From: an uncultured Gammaproteobacteria bacterium | GTDB taxonomy: Bacteria > Pseudomonadota > Gammaproteobacteria > CAWCPV01 | Direction: 5' to 3' | Assembly (NCBI GenBank): GCA_963797555.1 | Contig: CAWCPV010000002.1 | Span: 32,001 to 96,000 of the forward strand | DNA length: 64,000 nucleotides | Part shown: positions 3,508 through 61,027 of the stretch, piece by piece | Layout: each line of letters starts with the position of its first letter | Position numbering within the stretch: position 1 is the stretch's first letter | Made by a program: the position numbers and the translations under genes | The notes under the pieces: model-generated | The model's database searches: none | The model's input: only the letters and a program-made list of their open reading frames with translations | Told to the model about the DNA's origin: nothing

Positions 3508-5134
3508 GACACGCGACGGTACCGGTCCTCGGGCTCGCGGCCTTCAGCGGTACTGGCAACACCACCTTGCTGCGGAAGCTCATCCCGCTGCTGCGCGCGC
3601 AAGGTCTGCGCAGAGCTATGCTCGAATCTGGTGTACGGGGTTTGAGTGAGGCGGCGTATCCGGCTGGAATGTGAAGGGACCAGAGACACAAGCCAGCCGT
3701 GGAGGATACGCCGATGGATAACGATAGACCGATGGACGGCAGAGTGCCAGAGGGCGAGACGAGCGACCTGCTGACCGAACTTCTGAGAACGGGAGCGCGG
3801 CAACTGATTGCGCAGGCGGTGGAAGCGGAGCTGACCGAATTCCTGGGGCAGTTCCAGGGCGTGAAGTCGTTGGATGGCCGGGCGGCTGTGGTGCGAAACG
3901 GCTACCTGCCAGAGCGTGAGATCCGGACGGGTGTGGGGCCGGTCGCGGTGAAGGTGCCCAGGGTGCGAGACCGCAGTGGGTCAGGCATTCGGTTCCACTC
4001 CCGGTGCGGCGCACCAGGAGCTTGGAGGAGTTGCTGCCTTGGCTGTATTTGAAGGGAGTCTCCACGGGCGATTTTCAGGAGGCGTTGGCTTCATTGCTAG
4101 GCGAGCAGGCCGAGGGGCTGTCGCCTTCGACCCTCAGCCGGCTGAAACGTCAATGGGAAGAGGAGCACCAGCGCTGGGCACGCCGGGACCCCTCAGGCAA
4201 GCGCTACGTGTATTGGTGGGCCGATGGGGTGTACTTCAATGTGCGTGGGGAACAGGCGCGCGAATGCCTGCTCGTCATCGTCGGAGTGACCGAACAGGGC
4301 ACCAAGGAGTTCGTGGCCATTGAGGACGGCTTCCGGGAGTCGGAGCAGAGCTGGCTGGAGGTCCTGACGCGGCTCAAGCACCAGGGGCTGAAGGTCGGTC
4401 CCGAACTCGCCGTCGGCGATGGCGCTTTGGGCTTGTGGAAGGCGCTCACCAAAGTCTACGGCCAAACACGCCATCAGCGCTGTTGGGTGCACAAGAGGCT
4501 AACGTGCTGAACAAGCTCCCCAAGAGTCTCCAGCCGAAGGCCAAGAGCGCTCTTCACGAGATTCGGATGGCTGAAAGCCGCCACCAGGCGCAGAAGGCCT
4601 TTGAGGCGTTCCTCGACACCCACCGTGACAAGTATCCCAAGGCGGCACAGTGCCTGGAGAAGGACCGCCAGCAACTGCTTGCCTTCTACGACTTTCCAGC
4701 CGTGCATTGGCAGCACATCCGCACCACCAACCCCATCGAGTCGACCTTCGCCACAGTACGGCTTCGCACCGACAAGACGCGGGGTTGCGTGTCACGCCAG
4801 AGCTTCCTGGCGATGGTCTACAAGCTCGGCCAGAGCGCGGCCAAACGCTGGCGTCGACTCAGGGGCTTCGAACGCTTGGCCGAGGTCATTGCCGGGGTGA
4901 AATTCAAAGATGGAGTGCGTGTGGAAGCTGCGGAAGCCAACCGGATCGCCGCCTGATTCAGCCCATGCTCATACACCAGACTTGACTATATCTCGTCTGC
5001 GCATCGGAGCAATCAAGCACGCGCATTACACCTTCGACGTCGACCGTCCCGGGAAGGACAGCTACGAGCTGTGCAAAGCCGGTGCCTCCCGCGTGCTGGT
5101 GGCCTCCCGGCTGGGGCGGGCGTTGATTTGCTAG
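3501..5134 (+). pseudogene. mobB: MobB, interrupted by IS256 and 3'-truncated
   Basis: PVLGLAAFSGTG(N)TTLL..QGLR before the IS, RIGAIKHAHYTFDVDRPGKDSY after it; Walker A Lys changed to Asn; ends prematurely at 5134. Confidence 0.85.
3613..4994 (+). mobile_element. IS256-family element with frameshifted transposase (about 3714-4956)
   Basis: Imperfect IRs GAGCTATGCTCGAATCTGGTGTA / GAGATATAGTCAAGTCTGGTGTA; 9-bp TSD GTCTGCGCA at 3604-3612 and 4995-5003; motifs VRNGY, YWWADGVY, GDGALG, QRCWVHK, RTTNPIES. Confidence 0.95.
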
Positions 5135-5296
5135 GTGTTGGTTGCGAGGTTATGCTGAGCGGTGGTTGCTAGACTTTCGCGGCAACCGGGGTGGTCGCCG
5201 CGGGCGGCGGGAATGATTTTAGTGTAACAGGTATGCGGGAGGCGGCAAGGCGGCTATACTCGCGAATCATCAAAAGCGGGGGGAGGTGTCTTCAAG

Positions 5297-5818
5297 ATGA
5301 CGGTTAAGCAACTTTTTAGGATAAAGCAGTTTCGTGATATCAACGATGGAGACCTATTTATAGGCCGACTGGGAGACGGGGCCGTGATTCACGCAATCAA
5401 GGCGTTCCTGCCGGGTGAAGATGATGACCCGCCAAAGCCATTTATAGTGTCCGTCGGGCCATTTGCTAATGGGGATCAGCCTACAATCTACGAAGCATCT
5501 ATCTTGCGAGCTTCACCCGTCCTGGACGTGTCCTCGTACTACTCGTTCACCCCATCGCTTGCATCGGCTGACCTGGAGGGGTTGAACGGATACGCCGAGA
5601 GGGACTTGTTGGGCAAGGTGGTGCTACTTGACCAGGGTATGTATCTTGGTGCCATGTACCGCAGGGTTATGCAACTCGGCTTTCTTAATGTGGAAAGCGG
5701 GGCATTGGCCGTTAATCGACTTCCTGGAGAGCCAGCGATGGTGTCTTCCCGATGGCGGATAGAGGCAGCCGTGGAGAACTCGGCGCCGGAGATCATATTG
5801 GAGCACCGCGTAGAGTAG
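5297..5818 (+). CDS. Hypothetical protein (173 aa), lower-GC islet
   Basis: Intact ORF with GGAGG RBS, AT-richer composition, immediately upstream of TIR gene. Confidence 0.7.
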   Translation: MTVKQLFRIKQFRDINDGDLFIGRLGDGAVIHAIKAFLPGEDDDPPKPFIVSVGPFANGDQPTIYEASILRASPVLDVSSYYSFTPSLASADLEGLNGYAERDLLGKVVLLDQGMYLGAMYRRVMQLGFLNVESGALAVNRLPGEPAMVSSRWRIEAAVENSAPEIILEHRVE

Positions 5819-5838
5819 GTAGGATACCCGAGTATCCC

Positions 5839-6798
5839 ATGTGCGAGGTACTTTTCTCATATTCCCACCGGGACGAGGGGCTGCGCAACGAGCTGGAGAT
5901 CCATCTTTCCAGCTTGAAGCGTCAAGGTGTCATCACTACATGGCACGACCGGCGCGTAGGGGCTGGAGAAGAGGTACATGACGAGGTCAGCAGGCGCGTC
6001 GAGACTGCGGACATCATTCTCCTTCTGGTCAGTCCCTATTTCCTCGCTTCAGACTATTGCTATGAAGTGGAGATGCAGCGGGCCATGGAGCGGCACGAAG
6101 CGGGCGAGGCTCGGGTGATCCCGGTGATTCTCCATCCCTGTGACTGGCAGAGGGCGCCTTTCGGCAAGTTGCTGGCAGTCCCAACGGATGGCAAACCGGT
6201 GTCGAAGTTCCCGAACCAGCACGATGCGTTCCTAGAGATTACGCAGGCTATCCGCCAGGTGGCCGAGGACATGGGACGCCCAGTTGTACAGGCGCAATCA
6301 GGCAGCGAGCGACCTGCAGAACCGCCACCTGTCCCAATCGTCTCCGACATTCGGTCTAGTAACCTGCGTATGAAAAGGACGTTTTCGGACCGCGACAGAG
6401 ATCGTTTCCTCGATGAGGTATTCACTTACATCGCAAACTTCTTCGAAGGGTCCCTGGAGGAGCTTAAGAGGCGCAACCAGCAGGTAGATACCGCGTTCAA
6501 GCGGATCGACGCAAACCATTTCACAGCCGTGGTATACCGAAACGGCTCTATGGCCTCCAGCTGTAAGATCTGGCTAGGGGGCAGGCATTCTTTTGGTGGA
6601 GGAATTTGTTACTCGACGTTGATTACGTCGAACGATAACAGCCTCAACGAATCCTTATCGGTGAAAGATGACGGATACATTCTTTTTCTCCAGCCCTTGG
6701 GCATGCTGTCGCGTACCTATGGGGAGGAGCAGCAGTTCACCCCTGAGGGTGCTGCCGAGTACTTCTGGGCGGTCTTTATTGGGACGTTGCAGGGTTGA
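5839..6798 (+). CDS. TIR-domain protein (TIR_2-type N-terminus plus uncharacterised C-terminal domain)
   Basis: FSYSHRDE...WHDRRVGAGEE...ADIILLLVSPYFLASDYCYEVEM...VIPVILHPCDW; putative catalytic Glu present. Confidence 0.9.
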   Translation: MCEVLFSYSHRDEGLRNELEIHLSSLKRQGVITTWHDRRVGAGEEVHDEVSRRVETADIILLLVSPYFLASDYCYEVEMQRAMERHEAGEARVIPVILHPCDWQRAPFGKLLAVPTDGKPVSKFPNQHDAFLEITQAIRQVAEDMGRPVVQAQSGSERPAEPPPVPIVSDIRSSNLRMKRTFSDRDRDRFLDEVFTYIANFFEGSLEELKRRNQQVDTAFKRIDANHFTAVVYRNGSMASSCKIWLGGRHSFGGGICYSTLITSNDNSLNESLSVKDDGYILFLQPLGMLSRTYGEEQQFTPEGAAEYFWAVFIGTLQG

Positions 6799-6906
6799 GT
6801 TGAGGCGATGGGTCAGGTCCATCGTTGTAGCAGGTGCTCCGATGCGAGAACTGGCCCCAAATACCCCCCCCGAGCCTGCGAGCCCCCGTGCTTCGCCTGC
6901 CTCATC

Positions 6907-7151
6907 CCTGAATCCGCAGCCTGACTCGGCGAAACAACTAATAACAAGTTGATATATTTGGTATAATCCGGTTTTGCGAGTTTCACCCAATTGGTGCCAT
7001 GGCTCAAAATGTCCTCCACCCTTCTCGCGACCCGATTCCCACCTTTAAGCTCAAGCAAGGCAACGAACTGCTTACCGACCACGCCGGGCTTTCGCTGGTG
7101 GGTCTGGCCTTGGCGAAATTCGCCAAGGTCTGCCAGACACTGAGGGATTAA
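6907..7151 (+). mobile_element. IS1380-family left-end remnant with truncated transposase start (6999-7151)
   Basis: End CCTGAATCC, TATAAT box, ORF MAQ...FKLKQGNELLTDHAGLSLVG resembling IS1380 transposase N-termini. Confidence 0.55.
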
Positions 7152-48851: not shown

Positions 48852-49215
48852 GGCTTTGCTCCAGACTGAAGGGTGCCTAAGTTCTAGACGAGAAGTCTAT
48901 TCGTTGCGTGTTTGACACAGACAAGCATAGCGGTGGCCCCTGTTGTTCGCAACAATACAACGCTCGAAGTCAATCACCTGGCTCTTTAGTCCACCAGCGC
49001 ATGGCGCTTGTCATCAGTGTTGCGTTGAATCCACTGCTGCGTTGTATGATGTCCCAGGAATCTTTCAGTATGATGACGAGCGCGTGACAAGCCGCTGACA
49101 ACCGACAGACTGACCGCACACGTTGTCTGGCCGCCGCTGCACACATACCTTCATGGAACTGTCACACGGATGTGGTTTCATGCTCGCTTGTTCTGCCGAC
49201 CAGCTCAGGCGCGCC

Positions 49216-49506
49216 ATGCCATCGGTCGAAAGCCTCACCAAAGACAGCGGGTTGACTGGCCTCGCCCTGGGTATCGGCACCGCTCTTGCCGTCGCCTGGG
49301 TGCTGCCCGCAATCGGGGCGGTCGCCCGACCGGTCGCAAAGGCGGCCATCAAGTCCGTCCTCTCGACCTATGCCAAGGTACTGGAAGGCGCGGCCGAGCT
49401 GGGTGAGTCCCTCGATGACTTGGTGGCAGAAGCGCGCGCCGAGATGGCGTCGGGATCGAATCCGCCGGCCTCGGCGCACGGACCGTCCGCACGTGCGCAA
49501 TCCTAG
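49216..49506 (+). CDS. DUF5132/FezA-like small membrane protein, copy A
   Basis: GLALGIG TM segment, RPVAKAAIK, ESLDDLVAEARAE. Confidence 0.8.
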   Translation: MPSVESLTKDSGLTGLALGIGTALAVAWVLPAIGAVARPVAKAAIKSVLSTYAKVLEGAAELGESLDDLVAEARAEMASGSNPPASAHGPSARAQS

Positions 49507-51032
49507 CAGCCTGTCGGACTTGAGCTTCCCAAGACCATCCCAAACCGTTTCAGTGTTGCTTTGGCACCAAAATGGGCGATTTAGGGCCGGAATTTGGCCA
49601 TTTTTCCGCCAACTTCCCGGTTACAGACGCAATGCGGCCATGCGTTTTAGATTCCAGGCGAGACACACCAGCGTCCATTCGGCTTGGACGTTTTGCAGGC
49701 CACGCAGCAGGAATTGGCGAAATCCCATCACCGACTTGATGATACCGAAGACCGGCTCCACGGTTTGCTTGCGTAGGGCATAGTCCGCTTTGCCTTGGCG
49801 TGTCTTGAGCCTGTGCTTCATCGTCTCCAGCGGCCCCGCCTTTTCCGGCAGTGGCGGCGGCTCGCTGAAGCGTTCCGTCCAATGGGGATGATGCCCCTCC
49901 CGGCCTACCGCGATGAGCGGTTGGATCTCAGCCTGCTGGCAAGCGGCAACGTTGTGCTCGCTGAAGTAACCGGCGTCGGCCAGAAGCTTCTCGGGCTGAT
50001 TCAGCCCCTCGGGCAGGGCTTGGAGTTTTCCGACCATCGGCTCGACCTGCTCTTTGTCGTTGGCCGCTTGGGTGACGTGGGCGAGAACCACCAGCATCGT
50101 CTCGCTGTCCACCAGCGCTTGGGCGTTGTAGCTCTGCTCGAAGCCGCCGCCCGCCACGGGCATGATGCGGGATTCTTGGTCGGTCAGGTTGATCTGGTCT
50201 TCGGCACGTGGCCCGGGCTGGGGCGGCTTCGGCTCCTTGCCAGCGGGTTTCTTGCCGCTTGCCGCGGCCTTGGCCGCACGGGCGGCCACCTTGGCTTCAT
50301 AGTCGGCCTGCTCGCGCGCGAAACGTTCCTGGGCGCGTGCCTCGATCTTGGCCTTGGCCTCGGCGATGGCCGCAAGACGGTCCTGCCGGCGCTGCAGTTC
50401 TTCCGGAAGGCTCATCCCGTCCGCCACCGCCGTTTGGTCAGCTTGTTCGGCCAGTGCGAGCAGCTCTTGGACCTCGGCCTTGAGTTGGGCCTCGATCTGC
50501 TCGGCGTGGCCGTAAGACAAGGCACTGTGCCGGCTGGCGTTGGCGTGCAGCTTGGTGCCGTCCAGGCTGACCGTGCCGAAGCGGCTGATCTGGTTCTCTC
50601 GTGCCACTTGCAGGACCTGCACAAAGGCCGCTTCGAATTGCTTGCCAAAGCGCCGCCGAAAACTCGCCAGGGTGTCGTGGTCGGGATGCTGGTTACAGGC
50701 GATGAACCGAAAGGCCAGCGAATCGTAGGTCGCCCGCTCGATCTTGCGGCTGGAGAAGCTGCCCGTGGCATAACCGTATATCAGCAGCGACAGCAGCAGC
50801 GCCGGGTGGTAGGCCGCGCTTCCGTTGCCGGCATAGGCGCGCTCCAGCTCGCCAAGGGCCAGTCCTTCGACCACCTCCACTACGTAGCGCGCCAGGTGGG
50901 CCTCGGGCAGCCAGTCCTGCACCGACGGCGGCAACAGAAAGTCCGTGTCACGGTCAATCGGGCGAAAGCGGCTCATCTCAAAACTCCTCGGGGCAGTGGC
51001 CGCTATTGTACAGGGCTAAGTCCGACAGGCTG
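49507..51032 (-). mobile_element. IS1182-family element, intact
   Basis: 15-bp IR CAGCCTGTCGGACTT; CTAG duplicated at 49503-06 and 51033-36. Confidence 0.95.
49621..50976 (-). CDS. IS1182 transposase
   Basis: LPEAHLAR, YHP, PDHDT, LDGTKLHANAS, LADAGY, RKQTVEPVFG. Confidence 0.95.
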   Translation of the reverse strand: MSRFRPIDRDTDFLLPPSVQDWLPEAHLARYVVEVVEGLALGELERAYAGNGSAAYHPALLLSLLIYGYATGSFSSRKIERATYDSLAFRFIACNQHPDHDTLASFRRRFGKQFEAAFVQVLQVARENQISRFGTVSLDGTKLHANASRHSALSYGHAEQIEAQLKAEVQELLALAEQADQTAVADGMSLPEELQRRQDRLAAIAEAKAKIEARAQERFAREQADYEAKVAARAAKAAASGKKPAGKEPKPPQPGPRAEDQINLTDQESRIMPVAGGGFEQSYNAQALVDSETMLVVLAHVTQAANDKEQVEPMVGKLQALPEGLNQPEKLLADAGYFSEHNVAACQQAEIQPLIAVGREGHHPHWTERFSEPPPLPEKAGPLETMKHRLKTRQGKADYALRKQTVEPVFGIIKSVMGFRQFLLRGLQNVQAEWTLVCLAWNLKRMAALRL

Positions 51033-51122: not shown

Positions 51123-51842
51123 ATGACCGATCCAGAGCATTTCGCCGCCGCTGGGAAGCGCACCGGTTCAACCAAGAAGACGAGGAGACCAGGAATGGGT
51201 ACGGACTCTACGAAGAGTGAAGAGCTCACGAGGCCGTCACCGGCCGAAGCGATCCAGCCCGTCAGCAAGGCAGGCACTACCGTCAAGGAAGGGATCGTGG
51301 GAAGTCTGAAGGGCATCGACGAGATCGAGGCGCAGATCGTCAGCTTGGTGAGGAACACGGTTTCGTATGCCGTACGGGCCACCGGCGGGATCGCATCCGA
51401 AACGCTGAGCATTACCAAGGACGTGGTGGTCGGTGCGCTGTCCGCCACCGAGGAGGTAGGTGCCGGCCTTACCCTCAGCACCAAGAGCGTCGCCAAGGGC
51501 ATCGTGATGGGGGTAAGCAACGTCGGTGGGGACGTCATCGCCGTGGCCGCCGAGATTGTGAAGGCGGCGGTCAGAGGCGCTTCGGAAGTCGGCGCGGACG
51601 TGGGCATGGTCGCCAAACGGGCGGTCGACGGCGTGGTGGAGGCCGTCACCGAAACCGGCGGGAACGTCGCCGATGTGGCGACGGCGGCAGCGAGCGGCGC
51701 GGTGGAGGCAGCCGCCGCCATCGGTAACACCGCCGTCCGTGCGGTCAGAGACATGACCCTCGGGATCGCAGAGGGCATCAAGGAGGTGGCTGGCGCCATC
51801 CTGCCCAAACCCCGGCAGGGGCCGCCCAATCAATCGGGCTGA
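51123..51842 (+). CDS. 22-residue amphipathic-repeat protein, copy 3 (alternative start 51195)
   Basis: Colinear with copies 1 and 2; between DUF5132 and HMA2 genes. Confidence 0.85.
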   Translation: MTDPEHFAAAGKRTGSTKKTRRPGMGTDSTKSEELTRPSPAEAIQPVSKAGTTVKEGIVGSLKGIDEIEAQIVSLVRNTVSYAVRATGGIASETLSITKDVVVGALSATEEVGAGLTLSTKSVAKGIVMGVSNVGGDVIAVAAEIVKAAVRGASEVGADVGMVAKRAVDGVVEAVTETGGNVADVATAAASGAVEAAAAIGNTAVRAVRDMTLGIAEGIKEVAGAILPKPRQGPPNQSG

Positions 51843-52099: not shown

Positions 52100-52483
52100 A
52101 TGACAGCCTACATCCATCATGTTCCCGGCAGGCTGCGGGTGCGCTCTGCACAGATCAAGGGTAATCCGCATCGTGCGGCCGCCGTGCAGCGCACACTGCT
52201 GCAGACCGCCGGGCTGTTGTCCGCGGAGGTGAGCACGACCACCGGCAGCGTGGTCATCCATTACGACCCGCAGCGGGTCGATTCCGACACTCTTCTGGGC
52301 CCTTTCAAGGATGCGGGATGCGTGTCCCCCGACGCCAGCCTAAACACCTCCACCGGGCGTATCGAGTCGGCAGCGGCGAACGAACCCTACGCCTGGGGCC
52401 TGATCGGCAAGGCCGTCGCCGGCGTCGTCCTGGAGAAGCTGGTCGAGCATTCCGCCACTGCGCTGATCGGGGCCATCATCTAG
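52100..52483 (+). CDS. Cys-less HMA2 (FezC/CoBaHMA-like) domain protein
   Basis: YIHHVPGRLRVR...TTGSVVIHYD; hydrophobic C-terminal helix. Confidence 0.82.
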   Translation: MTAYIHHVPGRLRVRSAQIKGNPHRAAAVQRTLLQTAGLLSAEVSTTTGSVVIHYDPQRVDSDTLLGPFKDAGCVSPDASLNTSTGRIESAAANEPYAWGLIGKAVAGVVLEKLVEHSATALIGAII

Positions 52484-52965
52484 TGTAGTGCTTCATTCTG
52501 TTTAGAACTTAAACGTGCGTTGGCGCGGATGACCTTCTGCAGGATGTCCTTAGCCTTGGCGGTCCAGATGAAGGGTTTGGGATTGGCGTTGTGGGCATCG
52601 ACATAGCGGTTGATGGCAGGGATCAACTCGGGGACGCTTCGAAACACGCCACGGCGCAACCGATCCACAGTCAGGTCGCGGAAGAATCGCTCGACCATGT
52701 TCAACCAGGATGCTGAGGTGGGCGTGAAATGGATGTGGAAACGCGGGTGTTTTCCCAGCCATTTCTGAACGTTGGGATGTTTGTGGGTGGCGTAGTTGTC
52801 GCAGACCAAGTGCAGTTCCTTGTCCTTGGGCGTCTCGCGGTCGATTTGGCGCAGGAAGGTGAGCCACTCCGTGTGGCGATGGTGCGGCTCGCAGCGGGCA
52901 ATCACGGAACCCTCCAAGGTGTTCAGGGCAGCAAACAGTGTTGTGGTGCCATGGCGCTTGTAGTC
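52480..52965 (-). mobile_element. IS630-family element, 3' half only
   Basis: DYKRHGTTTLFAAL, VCDNYATHK, TPTSASWLNMVERFF, PKPFIW; ends at CTAG. Confidence 0.9.
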
Positions 52966-53067
52966 AACACAGATGCATCCCACCCACCGGCGCTGACTCC
53001 GCCCCTTGAGCGGCGAAGGCCTCGCTCCTCGCCGATTTCCCCAAGGGTTGCGAGCCCTTTCGGCGCC

Positions 53068-54255
53068 TCAGCCGAGCCTTCCTACCCTATCGGTCATTTC
53101 CCAGGGCAGACCGATGTCCATTCGTCCCATATGTCCGTACGTCGCGAGCCTGCTGTAGAAACGCCCCTTGAAAGCTGCGGGCAGCCTGCGCAAATTGAAG
53201 GTCCGGACGATCCCGGCGGGCCGCAGGTCGAAGTTCCGCTCGACCAGGGCACCGATCTCGCCGTCCGGAACGCGACCGGTGCCGAAGGTCTCCACCTGGA
53301 TGCTCACTGGCCGGGACAGGCCGACCGTGTAGCTGAGCTGCAGCTCGCACTCCTGTGCGAGCCCCGCCGCCACGATATTCTTGGCCGCATGGCGCGCGGC
53401 ATAGGCGCCCACCCGGTCGATGCGCGTGGGGTCCTTCCCGCTCAGAGCCGCCCCGCTATGCCGGGAGTACTCGCCGTAAGTGTCGATGGCGTTCTTGCGC
53501 CCGGTCAGCCCCGAATGCACCGTCGGACCACCCACGAGCAGCGGACCCCCGGGGTTTACGAATAGGCGCGTGCTGACATCCGGGCGTAACTCTTCGTCGA
53601 CGAAAGCGGGCTTCACCACCAACTCGATCAGGTCGTCCCGGAGCCTGGTCGGCGAGGGGGTGTCCGCGCCGTACTGGCTGGCCACGAGGGTGATGCTGTG
53701 GATGCGCGAGGGCCTGCGCCCGCGGAACTCCACGCCCACCTGAGTCTTGCCGTCCGGCGCCAAGTACTCCAGGAGACCCTTGAGACGCACGGCCGCGAGC
53801 TGCCTGGCGAGCTTGTGGGCCAGCCAGATCGGCAGGGGTACGAGGGCGCTGGTCTGGGTGCAGGCGAAGCCGAACACGGTAACCTGATTACGGGCCGGTA
53901 CCGCTTCAATTTCGTCCTCGGACAGCTCGGACTCATGTCCCCGCAGCTTTGGCCCGGCCGGCATCTCGTTGAAGCTCGTCATGATGCTGCAGGTCCCGGG
54001 GTTGAAGTCCTCACGGTCGTAGCCCACCTGGCGGATGACTTGGCGGGCGACCTCCGGAATGTCGACGCTCGCCCCCGAGTTGAAACGCGCCGCGATGAAC
54101 AGGATGCCCGTCGAGACGGCACACTCCACGCGGATCAACGAGAACGGGTCCTGCTCCAGAAAGCGGTCGACCACTGCGTCGCTCACTTGGTCGCACAGCT
54201 TGTCCGGGTGACCCTCGGTCACCGATTCCGAGGTGAACATGAAGTCGTCTCTCAT
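53068..54255 (-). CDS. Divergent methionine adenosyltransferase (MetK) paralogue
   Basis: FTSESVTEGHPDK, DGKTQ, GLTGRK, SGKD present, but GAGDQG replaced by PARNQV; ATGA overlap with ATPase stop. Confidence 0.9.
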   Translation of the reverse strand: MRDDFMFTSESVTEGHPDKLCDQVSDAVVDRFLEQDPFSLIRVECAVSTGILFIAARFNSGASVDIPEVARQVIRQVGYDREDFNPGTCSIMTSFNEMPAGPKLRGHESELSEDEIEAVPARNQVTVFGFACTQTSALVPLPIWLAHKLARQLAAVRLKGLLEYLAPDGKTQVGVEFRGRRPSRIHSITLVASQYGADTPSPTRLRDDLIELVVKPAFVDEELRPDVSTRLFVNPGGPLLVGGPTVHSGLTGRKNAIDTYGEYSRHSGAALSGKDPTRIDRVGAYAARHAAKNIVAAGLAQECELQLSYTVGLSRPVSIQVETFGTGRVPDGEIGALVERNFDLRPAGIVRTFNLRRLPAAFKGRFYSRLATYGHMGRMDIGLPWEMTDRVGRLG

Positions 54256-57200
54256 GGGCTTTCCTCCCGATGTGCAGCCGTCTCCAAACTCACGCGCGGT
54301 GCAGCCCGCGACGCTGTACCTGCAGGCCACGCCTTGGTGGTTTCGTTGATCAGCAGAGGCGCGAGTGCCGTGCCCGCAACGACCAGGCCGTCCAAGAGCC
54401 CAATGGGCGCACTCCCCAGGAATTGCCTCAAGCCGGGTAACACCGCCGACAGGAACTGTAGTCCGAGGGATCCTGCCATCGCCCCCTTCAGATAAGGGTT
54501 CGCGGGAAGCGGCCGCGGATCGAACAAGCTATGCGTCTCGGAACGGCAGCTGATGGCATGCAGGAGTTGCGCCGTGGTCAGGCTCATGAACGCCATCGTA
54601 TTGGCCCTAGCCCCCAGACCATAGCGGTAGACCCCGTAGCCGTATGCAGCGAGCGCGCCCGCGGTGAGCGTGGAGGACTCGAACCCGATGCGCCCGAAAT
54701 CGCCCCAGCCCACGATGGGCTGCCTCGGATCGCGCGGTGGACGGCGCAGCACGTCCGGCTCCGGCGCCTCCATGGCCAGGGCGAGCCCAGGAAAAATGTC
54801 CGTGACCAGATTGATCCACAACAACTGCATCGGTGTAAGGGGTTGGCCCGCCCCTGCAGCGATGGCACCCAGCATGACCATGATCTCGCTCAGGTTGGTG
54901 GCCAGAAGGAAGTGGATGGACTTGCGGATGTTCCCATAGATGGTGCGACCGCGACTCACCGCCGTCACCATGGTGGCGAGATCGTCTTCCTCCAGCACCA
55001 CGTCGGCCACGGTGCGCGCGACATCGGTCCCGGCCCCTCCCATAGCGATTCCGATGTCGGCGGCCTTGAGGGCTGGCCCATCATTGATGCCATCTCCGGT
55101 CATGGCCACCACCTGGCCCGTCCGCTGCAGCGCCTGAACGATCTGGAGCTTGTGCGCGGGGCTCACGCGGGCAAATACGTGGACCCGCTCGGCAATGGCC
55201 GCCAGAACCTCCGAGTCGATGCGCTCTAGGTGGGTGGAGTCCAGGATTTCCAACTGGCCGCCAGCGCTGAGGTCCAGGGCTTTGCCGATCGCATAGGCCG
55301 TGGGGCTCTGATCTCCGGTGATCATCACTGTATCGATCCCGGCGTCGTGGAAGAGCCCGATCAAGTCCCGGACACCGGGCCGGATAGGGTCAGCCATCCC
55401 GACCAATCCTACCCACGTGAGCCCCTGGGACAGCTCGCCCCCCTCTGGAAGATCACTATAGGCCATCCCGAGAACGCGCAGGGCATCGCCCGCCATGCGG
55501 TCATTTTCGATACGGATGGTCGACCTCAGCTCCTCGCTCAGCGGATGCCGCTCCCCATCCCGAAAGATCCAGTCGCAGAGGCCCAGCACCTCCGACGGAC
55601 TGCCCTTGACCGCAACCCGCACCTGCCCGTCTGGCAGGGCATGGTGGCTCGCCATGTAGTTACGATTCTCGGCGCGCTGCTCCAGTCTGAGCACGGGAAA
55701 GCGGCGTCTGAGCGGGGGCACGTCGACCCCGGCATCCATCGCCATGCGCAGCAAGGCCGCCTCCGTCGGCGAGCCTTTGAAGGGATCGCCCGCGCCCGGT
55801 GCGTTCGGCACCGCCTCGTTGCACAGCACGGATACCTCCGCGAGACGCATCAGGTCTGGATGCTCCGACGGCGGGACGGCTGTTCCGTCGGCATCCCAGA
55901 AACATCCCTGCGACACCCCCAAGCGCACACCGTCGGTAGCCACCCGGACCACGGCCATGCGGTTCAGAGTCAGTGTGCCCGTCTTGTCCAGACACAACAC
56001 CTGCACCGCACCCAAGGTCTCGACGGCATCGAGCTGGCGGATCAGGACCTTGTGCCGTCGCATGTCCCGGATGCCGATGGCCAGAGTGGTGGTAGCGACG
56101 GTCGGCAGCCCCTCAGGCACCGCCGCCACCGCCAAGGAGATGGCGGTCTTGAGCATCTGCAGCAGGCCATAGCCGCGCAACAGTCCGAGGACGAATACGA
56201 CGCCGCAGACCGCCCCGCTCAGCACAATGACCCGCGTGCCCAATTGGCTGAGCTGCCGTTGCATCGGAGTCTCAGGGGACCTCGCTTCGCCCACGAGGGT
56301 CTGAATCGTACCGAGCTCCGTAAAACCGCCGGTGCCGACGACGACGGCGAGCCCACTCCCCCCGGTAACGGTCGTCCCCATGTACACCATATTCACCCGG
56401 TCACCAAGGGGTAGCTCGTCCACGCTCAGTGCCGCGGTGCTCTTGCTGACCGGCATGCTCTCACCGGTGAGCGGGGACTCGTCGAGCGTGAGCCAGCGTG
56501 CCTCGACGAGCCGGGCATCCGCTGCCACGTAGCTGCCTGGCGATAGGCTCAAGATGTCACCGACCACCACGTTCTCACTGCCGATCTCTCGTAGGCGGTT
56601 CTCCCGCAAGACATGGACCGAGGGTTGCACCACGCTGGCCAGGGCATCGATAGTGCGTTCCGCCTGCCGCTCCGTGATAAAGCCGATGGTAGCGTTGATG
56701 ATCACGACCCCCATGATGACCACCGCATCCGCGAAGCCACCCGTCGCTGCTGAGATGACGGCGGAGGCGCTGAGCAGCGCCACCGGCAGGCTGTTGAGCT
56801 GGCCGAGCAACATGCTCAGCGCCGAACGTCCGGCGGGCTGGGGCAATACGTTCGGGCCATAGGCAGCGAGCCGGTTGGCCACGGCCCCATTGGAGAGGCC
56901 CGGGTGTCCTGGGCTATCGACGACCGCCAGGACCTCCGGGGTGTCGAGACGGTGCCATAATCTTTGCGCCTGAGTCTGGTAACCCCCGAGCAAGCGCCGG
57001 GCGTGGTGCGAGTGGACATTGCTGCCCCCGCGTTGCGCGGCGCTGCGACGGCTCGGCGAGGTGCCGTCGCCGGCCCTTTGGAGCTGCTGCAGGGCCGTGC
57101 GCGAAGGGAGAAGCCGTTCGATGGCGAGGACGATGGTCGGCAGGTCCGTCGCCTCGCCGAAGGTAACGAGCACGTTCCCGGTCAGCGTGCTGGCCCAGAC

Positions 57201-57323
57201 CCCGGTAACGCCCGAAAGCCGGCGCACCGCGGATTCCAGGAGGGCCCGCACATGCGCGCCGCGGTGAAGCCCATGGACGCGCAAACGCGCCCGCCCGGGG
57301 ACCGCGGTATGGATCGGACGCAC
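54252..57323 (-). CDS. P2A (Ca2+-type) P-type ATPase with N-terminal HMA2 domain
   Basis: TGES, VPEGLP, DKTGTLT, KGSP, MITGD, GDGIND, TNLSE, WINLVTD; N-terminus HTAVPGRARLRV...TLTGNVLV; GTG start inferred from GAGG RBS. Confidence 0.93.
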   Translation of the reverse strand: MRPIHTAVPGRARLRVHGLHRGAHVRALLESAVRRLSGVTGVWASTLTGNVLVTFGEATDLPTIVLAIERLLPSRTALQQLQRAGDGTSPSRRSAAQRGGSNVHSHHARRLLGGYQTQAQRLWHRLDTPEVLAVVDSPGHPGLSNGAVANRLAAYGPNVLPQPAGRSALSMLLGQLNSLPVALLSASAVISAATGGFADAVVIMGVVIINATIGFITERQAERTIDALASVVQPSVHVLRENRLREIGSENVVVGDILSLSPGSYVAADARLVEARWLTLDESPLTGESMPVSKSTAALSVDELPLGDRVNMVYMGTTVTGGSGLAVVVGTGGFTELGTIQTLVGEARSPETPMQRQLSQLGTRVIVLSGAVCGVVFVLGLLRGYGLLQMLKTAISLAVAAVPEGLPTVATTTLAIGIRDMRRHKVLIRQLDAVETLGAVQVLCLDKTGTLTLNRMAVVRVATDGVRLGVSQGCFWDADGTAVPPSEHPDLMRLAEVSVLCNEAVPNAPGAGDPFKGSPTEAALLRMAMDAGVDVPPLRRRFPVLRLEQRAENRNYMASHHALPDGQVRVAVKGSPSEVLGLCDWIFRDGERHPLSEELRSTIRIENDRMAGDALRVLGMAYSDLPEGGELSQGLTWVGLVGMADPIRPGVRDLIGLFHDAGIDTVMITGDQSPTAYAIGKALDLSAGGQLEILDSTHLERIDSEVLAAIAERVHVFARVSPAHKLQIVQALQRTGQVVAMTGDGINDGPALKAADIGIAMGGAGTDVARTVADVVLEEDDLATMVTAVSRGRTIYGNIRKSIHFLLATNLSEIMVMLGAIAAGAGQPLTPMQLLWINLVTDIFPGLALAMEAPEPDVLRRPPRDPRQPIVGWGDFGRIGFESSTLTAGALAAYGYGVYRYGLGARANTMAFMSLTTAQLLHAISCRSETHSLFDPRPLPANPYLKGAMAGSLGLQFLSAVLPGLRQFLGSAPIGLLDGLVVAGTALAPLLINETTKAWPAGTASRAAPRVSLETAAHREESP

Positions 57324-57542: not shown

Positions 57543-57827
57543 ATGGCACTGTTCGACGATGCATTGAAGAGCTGGGGGGTGCCCACCCTGTTGGGCGTCG
57601 GTGTGGTGATCGCCATCCCCGTTGTGCTGCCGCTGGTCGGCGCTGCACTGCGGCCCGTTGCCAAGGCAGCGATAAAGGGCTATCTCGCCTTCAGCGACGC
57701 GGCCAGCGAATACGTGGCGGGTGCGGCCGAGGAGTTGAGCGATCTAGTCGCCGAGGTCAAAGCCGAGCGAGCGGGCGTCGTTGCCGCCCCGTCTGCGGCA
57801 TCTGGGGCCGGGGCATCCGGGGAGTGA
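57543..57827 (+). CDS. DUF5132/FezA-like small membrane protein, copy B
   Basis: GAGG RBS; LLGVGVV TM segment, RPVAKAAIKG, EELSDLVAEVKAE. Confidence 0.85.
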   Translation: MALFDDALKSWGVPTLLGVGVVIAIPVVLPLVGAALRPVAKAAIKGYLAFSDAASEYVAGAAEELSDLVAEVKAERAGVVAAPSAASGAGASGE

Positions 57828-59743
57828 CCGGCCGAACTCCCTCCTGCGGGAGCGTCGCACCTTCGGGCAACTCTTCCATGAGACTTCCGGCCTTGCGCGT
57901 GGCCCACGCTCTACCGGGGCGAGTGCGCCTCAAGGTTCCCGCCCTCAAGGGTAACGGGGATCTCGTGCAGGCCGTGTGCGAACAACTGGAGACTGTCGAC
58001 GCCGTCCTGGAAGTGCGCGCGAGCCCGCTCACCGGAAGCCTGCTGGTCCGCTACGACACCTCGCGAATTCCGTCTCTAGGAGTCTGTCGGACTTAAGGTA
58101 GAAACGCGGGTGTTGCAACGCCCCAAGGGGGGAATCTTGACCATGTGGCTCAGGTATGGGTGAGAAGCTATCTTTTTTGCGTGGCAAGACCCTTCACGTG
58201 CCTTCTTTTCACCCGTTCAGGGCATGCATCCGCTTCAGATTCCACCCAAGGCATACTAAAGCCCATTCACTTCGGACTGCGTCTAAGCCGCGAAGCAGAA
58301 ATTGCCTGAACCCTTGCACGTGTTTGAGGATACCGAAGACGGTTTCCACGGAAGATTTGCGCTTGGCGTAAAGTGCCTTACCTTCCTTGGTTTGCAGGCG
58401 GTGGTGCATCGCCTGTACGGGTGTGGGATTGCGAGGGGGTTTAGGGTCTTCGGCGAAGCGCGTCTGTAAGGGAACATTGTGCTTCTCGCGTTTTTCCGGG
58501 ATGAGCGGCGCGATGCGAGCGTTTTTGCACCGCTGAACGTTGGCCTCGCTGAAGTAGCCGGTGTCGGCGAGGAGGGATTCGCCCTGACCCAGCGCCTCGG
58601 GCAACTGGGCAATGTTCTCTAACGCCGGCGCAATCTCCTGTTTGTCATTGGGGTGCTGGGTGACGTGGTGCTCCACGATGAGATGCGTCTCGACATCCAC
58701 CCCGGCCTGCACGTTGTAGGCCTGTTCGAACCCTCCACTGGAGGTGGGCATGATGCGTGATTCTTCATCCGTCAGATTGACTTGGTCCTTGGCCTGCGGG
58801 CCAGGTGTCGGAGGACTCGGCGCCTTGCCCCGAGCCTTCTTGCCGGTGTGTTTCTCATAGACCTCGCGCTTGGCCTGCTTCTGTTCGAACTCCGCCTGCT
58901 CGCGCTCAAAACGCGCCTGCGCCCGGGTCCGGATCTCCTCTTTCGCCTGGGCAATCGCCGCCAGTCGCTCTTCGCGACGCTTGAGTCGGCGGGAATATCC
59001 ATCTCCTCCGCCAGTGAGCTCCGGTCGGCCTGCTCGGCAAAGCGCATCAGGGCTTGCACTTCCTCCTGAAGCTGCGCCTCGAGCCGGTTCGCGTACTCCC
59101 AACTCAGCGCCTTATGCTTGCTGGCGTTTGCTTTGACCTTGCTCCCATCCAGCGCAATCGTGCCCAGCTTCACCAGCCCCATCTCTGCCGCCACCAGCAG
59201 AATCTCGACAAACAGCCCCTCCAGCTCCTTCAGAAACCGCCTGCGGAATTGCGCGATGGTGTCATGGTCCGGGTGCGTGTTGGCACAGATATACCGAAAC
59301 GCGATCGAATCATGGGTCGCCTTCTCCAGCTTGCGACTGGAAAACACCCCCGTGGCATAGCCGTAGAACAGCAACGCCACTAACATCGCCGGGTGGTAGG
59401 GCTTCGACCCCTTACCCCCGTACACCGCCGACAGATGCCTCAGCTCCAACTGCTCCACAATCTCCACCACAAATCGAGCCAAGTGCCCTTCCGGGAGATA
59501 GTCCTGCACGCAAGGCGGGAAAATATACGGGGTATCGCGGTCTATCGGGATGAATTCAACAGCCATCTTGCTCCCCAGGCGGTGGCCCGCTACAGTGCGC
59601 CTATTCTACCCCCGAGTCGGCTCCAAGTCCGACAGCCTCTAGGCGCCTTTCATAAGCTGCTCGAGCCCATCCACGGGCTGTTTCCGGGTGCCCAGGATCT
59701 GGGCGCTGCCGCCGCGCAACAGGCGGACTCCACGTCCCGCTGA
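57824..59743 (+). pseudogene. Second stand-alone HMA2 protein, interrupted by IS1182 (coding 57824 or 57878 to 58079, then 59643-59743)
   Basis: VAHALPGRVRLK...SPLTGSLLVRYD; frame resumes after the IS as (L)GAFHKLLEPIHGLF...SR*. Confidence 0.8.
58080..59639 (-). mobile_element. IS1182-family element (distinct from 49507 copy); transposase 59566-58209 frameshifted near 58990
   Basis: IRs GAG(T/G)CTGTCGGACTT; TAG duplicated within CTAG context; LDGSKVKANAS, LADTGY, RKSSVETVFG. Confidence 0.92.
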
Positions 59744-60217: not shown

Positions 60218-61027
60218 ATGAAACCGTTAGAGCTTCGGTCTGTGTGGATATCGGATGTGCATCTCGGTCTACGAGCATGCAAGGCCGAGTTTCTCCTGGA
60301 CTTCTTGCACAACGTGAGGTCCGAGTATCTGTACCTCGTGGGGGACATCATCGACTTCTGGACCCTGCGCAGCGGCTGGTACTGGCCCCAAATGCACAGC
60401 GACGTGTTGCGGGCGGTCCTGCACCGGGCCCAGAACGGTACGCATGTGGTCTACGTGCCCGGCAATCATGATGAGCTTTTCCGAGAATATGCCGGGACGA
60501 TCTTCGGGGGCGTCCAGGTGCGGTCCGAGGCGGTCCACGAGACGGCCGACGGCCGTAAGTTTCTAATCATTCACGGCGACGAGTTCGACTACGTCGTCAA
60601 GCACAACCGCACCGTGGCCCTGATCGGCAGCGGCGCATACGAGCTTCTGCTGAGCGCCAACCGTTGGGTGAACGCGGCGCGGCGCAGGCTCGGGCTGCCT
60701 TACTGGTCGCTTGCCGCTTACCTCAAGCACAAGGTGAAAAACGCGGTCAACTACATCAGTAATTTTGAGCATGCTCTGGTGCACGAGGCACGCAAGCGCA
60801 GGCTCGACGGCGTCATCTGTGGGCATATCCACAAGGCCGCCATCCAGCAGATCAACGGTGTCCTCTACTGCGACGGCGATTGGGTGGAAAGCTGTACGGC
60901 CCTGGTCGAGCACCAGAACGGACGCCTGGAGGTGATCCACTGGGCCGATGAAAGCGTGTTCCTGCTGGCGGAGGGCGAGGAACAACGGTCAGCGTCTATC
61001 CCCGTACACGTGGCTCGCGTCTCTTGA
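60218..61027 (+). CDS. PlcP-like Mn-dependent phospholipase C (LpxH/UDP-2,3-diacylglucosamine hydrolase superfamily)
   Basis: ISDVHLG, LVGDIID, YWPQ, PGNHDE (His rather than the LpxH Arg), HGDEFD, CGHIH, GDWVESCTAL. Confidence 0.8.
   Translation: MKPLELRSVWISDVHLGLRACKAEFLLDFLHNVRSEYLYLVGDIIDFWTLRSGWYWPQMHSDVLRAVLHRAQNGTHVVYVPGNHDELFREYAGTIFGGVQVRSEAVHETADGRKFLIIHGDEFDYVVKHNRTVALIGSGAYELLLSANRWVNAARRRLGLPYWSLAAYLKHKVKNAVNYISNFEHALVHEARKRRLDGVICGHIHKAAIQQINGVLYCDGDWVESCTALVEHQNGRLEVIHWADESVFLLAEGEEQRSASIPVHVARVS

Follow-up and report, generated by a model that had tools for sequence, protein, structure and literature searches.

A pump-linked MetK-like gene in an uncultured gammaproteobacterium and the multi-phylum sister family of methionine adenosyltransferase to which it probably belongs

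The stretch of DNA analysed here (the window: 64,000 nucleotides from an uncultured Gammaproteobacteria bacterium, contig CAWCPV010000002.1) carries, directly behind the gene of a calcium-type P2 ATPase, a gene whose product resembles MetK, the bacterial methionine adenosyltransferase (MAT). This MetK-like gene very probably belongs to a sister family of MetK that is widespread across several phyla, is maintained by selection, is coupled to the pump gene, and has a rebuilt methionine pocket. The features on which this finding turns are the following.

53068..54255 (stop codon included), minus strand (read 54255..53068): MetK-like (MAT-fold) paralogue of 395 amino acids, identified by translation, by Pfam (PF00438, PF02772 and PF02773), by TIGR01034, and by an AlphaFold2 (AF2) model and Foldseek.
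54252..54255, minus strand: ATGA start/stop overlap between the ATPase gene and the MetK-like gene, read from the sequence.
54263..54267, minus strand: GGAGG Shine-Dalgarno-like site, 7 nt 5' of the MetK-like ATG, read from the sequence.
54252..57323, minus strand: P2-type (SERCA/PMR1-like) ATPase with a likely start at GTG 57323 (1023 amino acids), the longest open reading frame (ORF) extending to 57527; identified by Pfam, NCBIfam and an alignment of N-termini.
57108..57323, minus strand: N-terminal CoBaHMA (Pfam HMA_2) domain of the ATPase, identified by a weak HMA_2 match at residues 72-136 of the long ORF and by a second match of 24.6 bits.

The ATG of the MetK-like gene (54255-54253) and the TGA stop codon of the ATPase gene (54254-54252) overlap by 4 nt. 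A preliminary description of this DNA had recognised a full-length ORF coupled to the ATPase by an ATGA overlap; both are seen in the sequence, with the refinement that they lie on the minus strand. A longer GTG frame of the MetK-like ORF (to 54330) is unsupported, as homologues align from M1 of the 395-amino-acid form. Among the 44 loci whose ATPase ORF is intact, 24 show the same 4-nt overlap, and in 35 the two genes either overlap or lie no more than 22 nt apart. The MetK-like protein is translated from the same message as the pump and is inherited together with it.

The association of the two genes extends well beyond this genome. Scanning one genome per species yielded 80 loci, comprising 62 with a MetK-like match at least 51% identical, 14 with a canonical metK (at most 50%), and four others. 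An ATPase gene lies directly upstream, on the same strand, in 61 of the 62 clade loci, and the exception (L055) is a locus whose upstream DNA is just 97 nt long; directly upstream of the 14 canonical metK genes it was found in none. The other four comprise L080, a partial match where a contig begins, and the short C-terminal fragments L081, L082 and L083. In L081 and L083 upstream DNA is present and no ATPase was found nearby; the same metagenome-assembled genome also has a full locus, L031. In a sample of Nitrospirota, 21 of 151 genomes carry the paralogue, and an ATPase of the subfamily adjoins it in 21 of 21. One of the 21, G084 (locus L084, G084:C3:654000-664000, about 3997-7044), has an intact MetK-like gene beside an ATPase gene broken into three reading frames, which is either a pseudogene or the result of sequencing errors. 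In G083 the ATPase lies at a contig end.

The two proteins have also diverged together. Across 43 loci, the pairwise distances of the MetK-like proteins track those of the ATPases closely (Mantel r = 0.926, with 0 of 999 permutations as high), and conservation is higher in the MetK-like protein than in the ATPase (mean pairwise distance 0.348 vs 0.447). As to fused ATPase-MetK proteins, we found only four singleton partial chimeras (P0122, P0123, P0177 and P0222), none of full-fusion length. Each links a portion of the ATPase to some or all of the MetK-like protein; an artefact of assembly or frameshift, or a deletion fusion, may account for them, and we give them no weight as evidence.

The pump has the domains E1-E2_ATPase, Cation_ATPase_N and Cation_ATPase_C. 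In NCBIfam it comes closest to the PMR1-type and SERCA-type calcium ATPases, with scores under the equivalog cut-off of each, and its best solved relatives are SPCA1 and Listeria LMCA1. In an alignment of 39 N-termini, the homologues start directly with the CoBaHMA domain, which makes GTG 57323 the likely start of the ATPase; H73, G78, R79 and R81 are invariant in this head. The CoBaHMA domain family of Gaschignard et al. (2024, Proteins) has reportedly been proposed to bind anionic partners. We considered a specially acidic gating loop in the MetK-like protein that would dock on a basic CoBaHMA patch, and rejected it: the median net charge is -5 in the clade vs -4 in canonical MetKs.

We use 'pump-linked MetK-like clade' as a working definition rather than as the name of a published family. 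It denotes sequences with the signature H238/R269/L262 (E. coli MetK numbering, here and throughout) that fall inside a clade with a Shimodaira-Hasegawa-like approximate likelihood ratio test (SH-aLRT) support of 100. A place immediately behind a CoBaHMA-headed P2-type ATPase, on the same strand, is its second mark, which the query also has. That clade was recovered in a tree of 114 rows (IQ-TREE quick, LG+G4), built after the partial rows L078, L041, L053, P0237, P0245, P0258, P0275, P0280, P0284 and P0285 had been dropped. It unites all ATPase-linked sequences with 13 context-less representatives (70 of the 114 rows) on a stem of length 0.46, and the query carries all three signature residues and falls within it. 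The members come from eight phyla, which the clade tree mixes. The ratio of nonsynonymous to synonymous substitution rates (dN/dS, NG86) is 0.057-0.268 in the 19 computable pairs of 22, the other three being saturated. The clade is under purifying selection. The preliminary description had suggested that the altered residues might define a conserved clade linked to P2A ATPases, and that the gene did not look decayed. The first suggestion is borne out by the SH-aLRT 100 clade and the 61 of 62 loci with an ATPase. The second agrees with substitutions that are shared across the clade rather than private to this sequence, and with dN/dS values that are not near 1.

Some representatives of the clade are more divergent (P0228, P0230, P0233, P0234, P0235, P0238, P0242, P0243, P0247 and P0255). 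They share L262 and mostly H238 and R269, and K165 is replaced by Q, S, T or V in several of them. None of 40 same-class relatives of the present genome has the paralogue, their best hits being at most 45% identical, which is the canonical range; one of the 40, G044, is unpublished and enters no other count. The 2004 genome paper of Methylococcus capsulatus Bath (PMC517821) lists two metK genes that are phylogenetically divergent (MCA0450 and MCA0139); one of these might belong to the pump-linked MetK-like clade, which would give a cultured model.

By overall fold and family score, the protein is a MAT. All three Pfam MAT domains (PF00438, PF02772 and PF02773) score above cut-off, the TIGR01034 equivalog cut-off is passed (about 366 bits vs 309.4), and the best solved relatives are bacterial MetKs (E about 1e-97). 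An AF2 model built with 77 clade sequences has a predicted local distance difference test (pLDDT) score of 88.7, and Foldseek matches it to solved MATs at template modelling (TM) scores of 0.85-0.93 and about 40% identity. Its sole low-confidence stretches are residues 255-262 and 264-270, that is, the tripolyphosphate-recognition loop and the P-loop. With bacterial MetK (EC 2.5.1.6; TIGR01034; for example E. coli 1FUG and 7LL3) it shares the three-domain fold, the length, and the Mg/K and triphosphate residues. It differs in a 7-residue insert near the C-terminus, in forming a separate clade, in being a second copy in the genomes tested, and in its position behind one subfamily of ATPases.

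A canonical metK, whose presence elsewhere in the genome the preliminary description had thought worth confirming, was found at G000:C3:439149-440282. It scores 624.5 bits on TIGR01034, about 260 bits above the MetK-like protein. Of the five other carrier genomes tested, four likewise encode both a canonical MetK, at 537-595 bits, and the paralogue, at 364-381 bits; in the fifth, the canonical gene is seen as a mere fragment at a contig end. Because the paralogue passes the TIGR01034 cut-off, annotation pipelines will name it methionine adenosyltransferase.

The active-site residues tell the two proteins apart. In a MAFFT alignment with E. coli K-12 MetK (from NC_000913) and this genome's canonical MetK, the residues that the preliminary description had listed as retained (H14, D16, E42, D163, K165, R244, K245, K265 and D271) are all present in the query, and each of the substitutions it had listed is there as well. 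GGEIT has become AARFN (E55R); GKQSPDI has become NEMPAGP (Q98M), with the gating loop unrecognisable; GAGDQG has become PARNQV (G117R, D118N); GRFVIGGPMGD has become GPLLVGGPTVH (R229P, F230L, D238H); and GGGAFSGKD has become SGAALSGKD (G258S, G260A, F262L), to which K269R is added. A further change, G253E, was absent from that list. GAGDQG and GGGAFSGKD are signature motifs of the MetK family. In their place the clade has P-x-[KR]-N-Q-V and S-G-[AS]-A-L-S-G-K-D, and its methionine contacts are replaced relative to bacterial MetK (E55R, Q98L/M, D238H and K269R), as is G253 by E.

These states are not peculiar to the query. We compared it with a close set, made up of the query and the best 119 relatives of thousands from a word-indexed search (66-84% identical to the query), and with a clade set of 60 sequences from the 80 loci and the window. 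In the close set, R55, H238, E253, S258 and L262 are each found in 120 of 120 sequences, N118 in 119, R269 in 117, K or R at 117 in 116, P229 in 113, and L or M at 98 in 110. The wider clade set agrees: H238, R269 and L262 are each present in 59 of 59, S258 in 57 of 59 and E253 in 55 of 59. R55 is found in 51 of 60 (the rest having H, K or Q) and N118 in 46 of 60, and Q98 is kept in just 2 of 60. Of the retained residues, H14, D16, E42 and D163 are present in 60 of 60, K165 in 57 of 60, K245 and K265 in 59 of 59, R244 in 58 of 59 and D271 in 57 of 59. At the adenine site, F230 is found in 38 of 57, D or E at 227 in 42 of 59, and P229 in 36 of 56.

A scan of all columns for positions at which a residue reaches 85% or more in each group and differs between the groups (57 clade rows and 41 canonical rows) returned ten switch positions, among them D238H, G253E, G258S and K269R. 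The 41 canonical sequences had been chosen for having E55, D238 and K269; at the other switch positions, the canonical residue is present in at least 35 of the 41. The canonical rows have G-D at 117-118, and G and F at 258 and 262.

The roles of these residues are known from human MAT2A. In the part of the source covered here (PMC6850014), the amino group of methionine is bound by Glu70 and Asp258 (E. coli E55 and D238), its carboxylate is bound by Gln113 (Q98), and Phe250 (F230) stacks on adenine. On these assignments, basic side chains stand where MetK binds the methionine amino group with acidic ones (E55R and D238H), just as the preliminary description had it. Its broader statement, that methionine- and adenine-binding residues have been lost, holds for the methionine contacts, which are replaced. 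The adenine part holds only partly and was overstated for the family, since F230 is kept in 104 of the 120 close homologues and in 38 of 57 clade sequences; the L at 230 of the query is a minority state and not a feature of the clade. The same part of that source also describes variants in which the two half-reactions come apart. MAT1A patient variants, including Asp258Gly and a Lys289 substitution, lose SAM (S-adenosylmethionine) synthesis and keep phosphatase activity, and in E. coli, mutations of the gating loop cut SAM formation more than 200-fold and leave tripolyphosphate hydrolysis unchanged.

In place of the methionine contacts and of part of the adenosine contacts, the clade has a set of its own that is as invariant as the old one: R55, K/R117, N118, H238, E253, S258, L262 and R269. 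Since the methionine contacts are replaced by conserved basic residues and the triphosphate and metal ligands are kept, we infer that the protein no longer makes SAM and still binds Mg-triphosphate. The loss of SAM synthesis is a probable conclusion from this residue pattern. By the same pattern, the former methionine/adenosine pocket, now basic (R55, K/R117, H238 and R269), would take an anionic group. With the methionine site and both signature motifs altered in this way, the protein should not be filed as a MetK enzyme.

The pump and the MetK-like protein are parts of a larger neighbourhood. We clustered the ORFs of 59 loci and the window (60 sources); the counts are lower bounds, as many loci end at contig ends. 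The recurring neighbours are a DUF5132-like small membrane protein (at least 48 of 60 sources), a repeat protein (at least 36 of 60), and small CoBaHMA proteins. In the window, these genes and the elements among them are as follows.

49074..49102, minus strand: Pho-box-like array of PhoB/OmpR-type appearance, made up of three heptamers [GC]T[TC]GTCA in 11-bp phase, between a porin gene and the DUF5132 gene that starts at 49123 (plus).
49123..49506, plus strand: second DUF5132 protein (Pfam DUF5132, 37.9 bits).
49621..50976, minus strand: insertion sequence (IS) transposase (DDE_Tnp_1, DUF772) between the DUF5132 and repeat-protein genes, identified by Pfam and by comparison with the uninterrupted loci L027, L037, L047 and L051.
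51123..51842, plus strand: Ala/Val/Gly-rich repeat protein (about 230 amino acids across loci), identified as a neighbour cluster.
52100..52483, plus strand: second small CoBaHMA protein, 127 amino acids, abutting an IS630 fragment (HMA_2, 40.2 bits).
52480..52983, minus strand: IS630-family transposase fragment of 167 amino acids, between the plus-strand genes of the module and the MetK-like gene (Pfam DDE_3, NCBIfam NF033545).
57543..57827, plus strand: DUF5132-like small membrane protein, divergent from the ATPase (Pfam DUF5132 at 23 bits, just below cut-off; neighbour cluster).
57878..58096, plus strand: small CoBaHMA protein of 72 amino acids, probably truncated (HMA_2, 56.9 bits).
58209..59102, minus strand: IS transposase (DDE_Tnp_1) adjoining the truncated CoBaHMA gene, identified by Pfam.

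This arrangement is that of the Pseudomonadota-type loci L027, L037, L047 and L051, interrupted by three IS elements. The repeat protein matched no Pfam family, and the ESM Atlas gave hypothetical proteins only. A motif CTGTCGGACTT(G/A)AG occurs at 49511-49524 and 58084-58097, on the low-coordinate side of the two DDE_Tnp_1 genes, and is probably an IS end. The stop codon of the CoBaHMA ORF at 57878..58096 lies within this motif, shared with the other IS end, which is why we regard that ORF as probably truncated. The similarity between the two IS copies is remote (74% over 43 nt). The mixing of phyla in the clade tree, the 0 of 40 same-class relatives with the paralogue, and the flanking IS suggest that the module came by horizontal transfer.

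A related cluster, L085 (G143:C19:28000-38000), lacks a MetK-like gene; DUF5132, CoBaHMA and repeat-protein genes accompany its CoBaHMA-headed ATPase (41% identity). Downstream of it are a zinc-ribbon gene and an opposite-strand CoBaHMA gene, followed by a DUF294 nucleotidyltransferase with cNMP-binding and CBS domains. No substitute enzyme lies directly behind the ATPase of L085.

Genes of phosphate uptake recur in the neighbourhood of the module. Within 8 kb, pstS is present in 13 of 60 sources and pstC/A in 12, together with OlsB-like (11), OlsA-like (12) and GT21 glycosyltransferase genes (7). In one Nitrospirota group (L004, L007, L008, L012, L013, L014, L054, L061, L073 and a few others), the module stands among pstS, pstC/A, OlsB- and OlsA-like acyltransferase genes, GT21 and a zinc-ribbon protein gene, in what looks like an island for phosphate limitation and lipid remodelling. 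TGTCA pairs in 11-bp phase are enriched in the 300 nt that precede DUF5132 genes, with 11 of 57 hits in about 2% of the sequence. In the window there are 5 phased hits against 0.53 expected, a number reached or exceeded in 8 of 500 shuffles. The array at 49074-49102 presumably resembles an E. coli Pho box.

Our favoured reading, to which we give a probability of roughly 0.45 on the strength of these sequence comparisons, is that the MetK-like protein is a neofunctionalised MAT-fold accessory enzyme, handling triphosphate or polyphosphate, of a conserved pump module. The module would consist of the DUF5132 proteins, the small CoBaHMA proteins, the repeat protein and the CoBaHMA-headed calcium-type P2 ATPase. 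At the cytoplasmic face of the pump, the enzyme would hydrolyse or sense tripolyphosphate, short polyphosphate, or the triphosphate of a nucleoside triphosphate (NTP). Its activity would be an expanded version of the tripolyphosphatase half-reaction intrinsic to MetK, and it would couple the release or the status of phosphate to cation pumping, probably under phosphate limitation. We speculate that E253, an acidic residue newly placed where the tripolyphosphate-recognition loop ends, may serve as a general base or an extra metal ligand. The narrower proposal of a specific step of triphosphate or polyphosphate hydrolysis is a tentative one, and the odds are rather against it. Dedicated tripolyphosphatases exist in the triphosphate tunnel metalloenzyme family, which hydrolyse triphosphate and short polyphosphate in a metal-dependent way on a fold unrelated to MAT; the likeness to the MetK-like protein lies in the proposed activity only, and the fold differs.

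Several observations tell against an accessory enzyme of this kind. The P-loop itself is altered (G258S, G260A/S and F262L), and with AF2 confidence low at residues 255-262 and 264-270, the geometry with which triphosphate would be bound is uncertain. H14 never varies and most members have F230, two residues that in MetK act on the nucleoside side; their retention fits a nucleosidyl transferase as well as it fits a hydrolase. The L085 cluster, in which the MetK-like gene is missing, indicates that the pump module can work without the protein. In the present genome the module is cut by IS elements and none of the 40 same-class relatives has the paralogue, which leaves its current use in this organism unproven. 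The phosphate connection has difficulties of its own. The repeats at 49074-49102 are oriented towards the porin gene (start 48851, minus) and away from the DUF5132 gene. A search of the window for the E. coli-type Pho box CTGTCATNNNNCTGTCAT with up to 3 mismatches gave 2 matches against 3.16 expected, and thus no enrichment. The pst and lipid-remodelling neighbours come mostly from one related Nitrospirota group, and 7 of the 11 phased-repeat hits come from the same group and point away from the DUF5132 gene. For this window, the phosphate link is weak.

The same evidence can be read in other ways. The protein could be a nucleosidyl transferase of the adenosyl type, in which a new anionic compound, not an amino acid, attacks C5' of the NTP and tripolyphosphate is released. 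The invariance or near-invariance of H14, D16, D163 and K165, and F230 in 38 of 57 sequences, are in keeping with such an enzyme, the charge reversals E55R and D238H together with K269R fit an anionic group, and the new residues are conserved like the catalytic set. E. coli MetK has, by the titles of structure entries, been co-crystallised with CTP, UppNHp and GppNHp, which suggests that the fold tolerates other nucleotides. However, contacts to adenine and ribose are themselves changed (T227 to D/E, R229 to P, D118 to N and S186 to A), the conserved neighbourhood offers no candidate substrate pathway, and there is no obvious tie between an adenosylated product and a cation pump. On balance, we consider a transferase unlikely. 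The protein might instead have given up catalysis and act as a scaffold or sensor of MAT fold, binding a phosphate-rich ligand or the pump and so regulating pumping. Obligate adjacency, translational coupling and co-divergence with the pump would all be expected of such a regulator, as would the loss of the P-loop glycines and the status of an extra copy beside canonical metK in the genomes tested. A scaffold alone, however, would hardly need all the metal ligands and basic triphosphate ligands, which are kept under strong purifying selection, and the MetK-like protein is more conserved than the pump (0.348 vs 0.447); a non-catalytic role seems to us a minor possibility.

An ordinary second SAM synthetase isozyme, co-expressed with the pump, is the least likely of the transferase, the regulator and this, and we think it very improbable. 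The protein passes the TIGR01034 cut-off and its homologues are named 'methionine adenosyltransferase' in their sources, but none of the methionine contacts E55, Q98 and D238 remains, neither signature motif is intact, the score is about 260 bits below that of the genome's own MetK, and the paralogue never replaces the canonical gene in the genomes tested. Nor is a decaying duplicate with private, neutral substitutions at all credible. The disruption of the surrounding module by three IS elements in this genome is what one might expect of decay, but the ORF is intact, the same substitutions are found in eight phyla, and dN/dS is 0.057-0.268; at the level of the family, the conservation data already contradict it.

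Parts of the proposed pump module have been seen in other systems. In the neighbourhood of the calcyanin gene ccyA of Microcystis aeruginosa PCC 7806, as described in the part of the preprint covered here (bioRxiv 10.1101/2024.07.07.602159), DUF5132 and CoBaHMA proteins stand with a calcium transporter. That locus has a Ca2+/H+ exchanger and calcyanin and, unlike the module, no CoBaHMA-headed P2 ATPase. The passages of the preprint on the ccyA neighbourhood gave no hit for 'adenosylmethionine' and mention no MetK-like gene. Ferrosomes, according to the covered part of Grant and Komeili (bioRxiv 10.1101/2020.01.10.902569), are granules that a membrane encloses and in which metal, phosphorus and oxygen are abundant. 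Their fez clusters join a P-type ATPase and small membrane proteins in a compact, widely transferred operon, a layout similar to that of the module. FezB is of the P1B-6 (heavy-metal) type, whereas the module pump is of the P2 (calcium) type, and the module is known here from genes alone, among which no Fez homology was seen, although no search aimed at it was made; a MAT-fold protein is not mentioned in that part of the text.

It is tempting to speculate that evolution has given the MAT fold a new use, as the enzyme that handles phosphate in an undescribed pump-based membrane system that answers phosphate limitation, in the manner of ferrosomes or of acidocalcisome-like calcium/phosphate stores, although we rate this as improbable. 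The CoBaHMA-headed pump and the small membrane proteins would then build or serve a compartment, and the MetK-like protein would hydrolyse or transfer tri- or polyphosphate beside the pump.

In the literature searched, supplements aside, we found no published description of a pump-linked MetK paralogue; the CoBaHMA paper of 2024 may mention the architecture or the neighbours of the ATPase. The family is apparently undescribed. Thousands of such proteins are named 'methionine adenosyltransferase' by annotation pipelines, so that metabolic reconstructions of Nitrospirota, Methylomirabilota, sulfate reducers, cyanobacteria and others probably include one SAM synthetase too many. For enzymology, if the reading is true, this would be the first natural MAT-fold family in which the half-reactions have been separated or the nucleophile pocket re-specified. 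For cell biology, it points to a pump module found in several phyla, with CoBaHMA and DUF5132 parts like those near the cyanobacterial calcium-carbonate gene ccyA. Cultured carriers among the scanned loci are Thermodesulfatator autotrophicus S606, Rivularia sp. UHCC 0363 and Plectonema cf. radiosum LEGE 06105.

In the window, a gene for a calcineurin-like metallophosphoesterase (60218-61027, plus strand) lies just past the IS that flanks the module.

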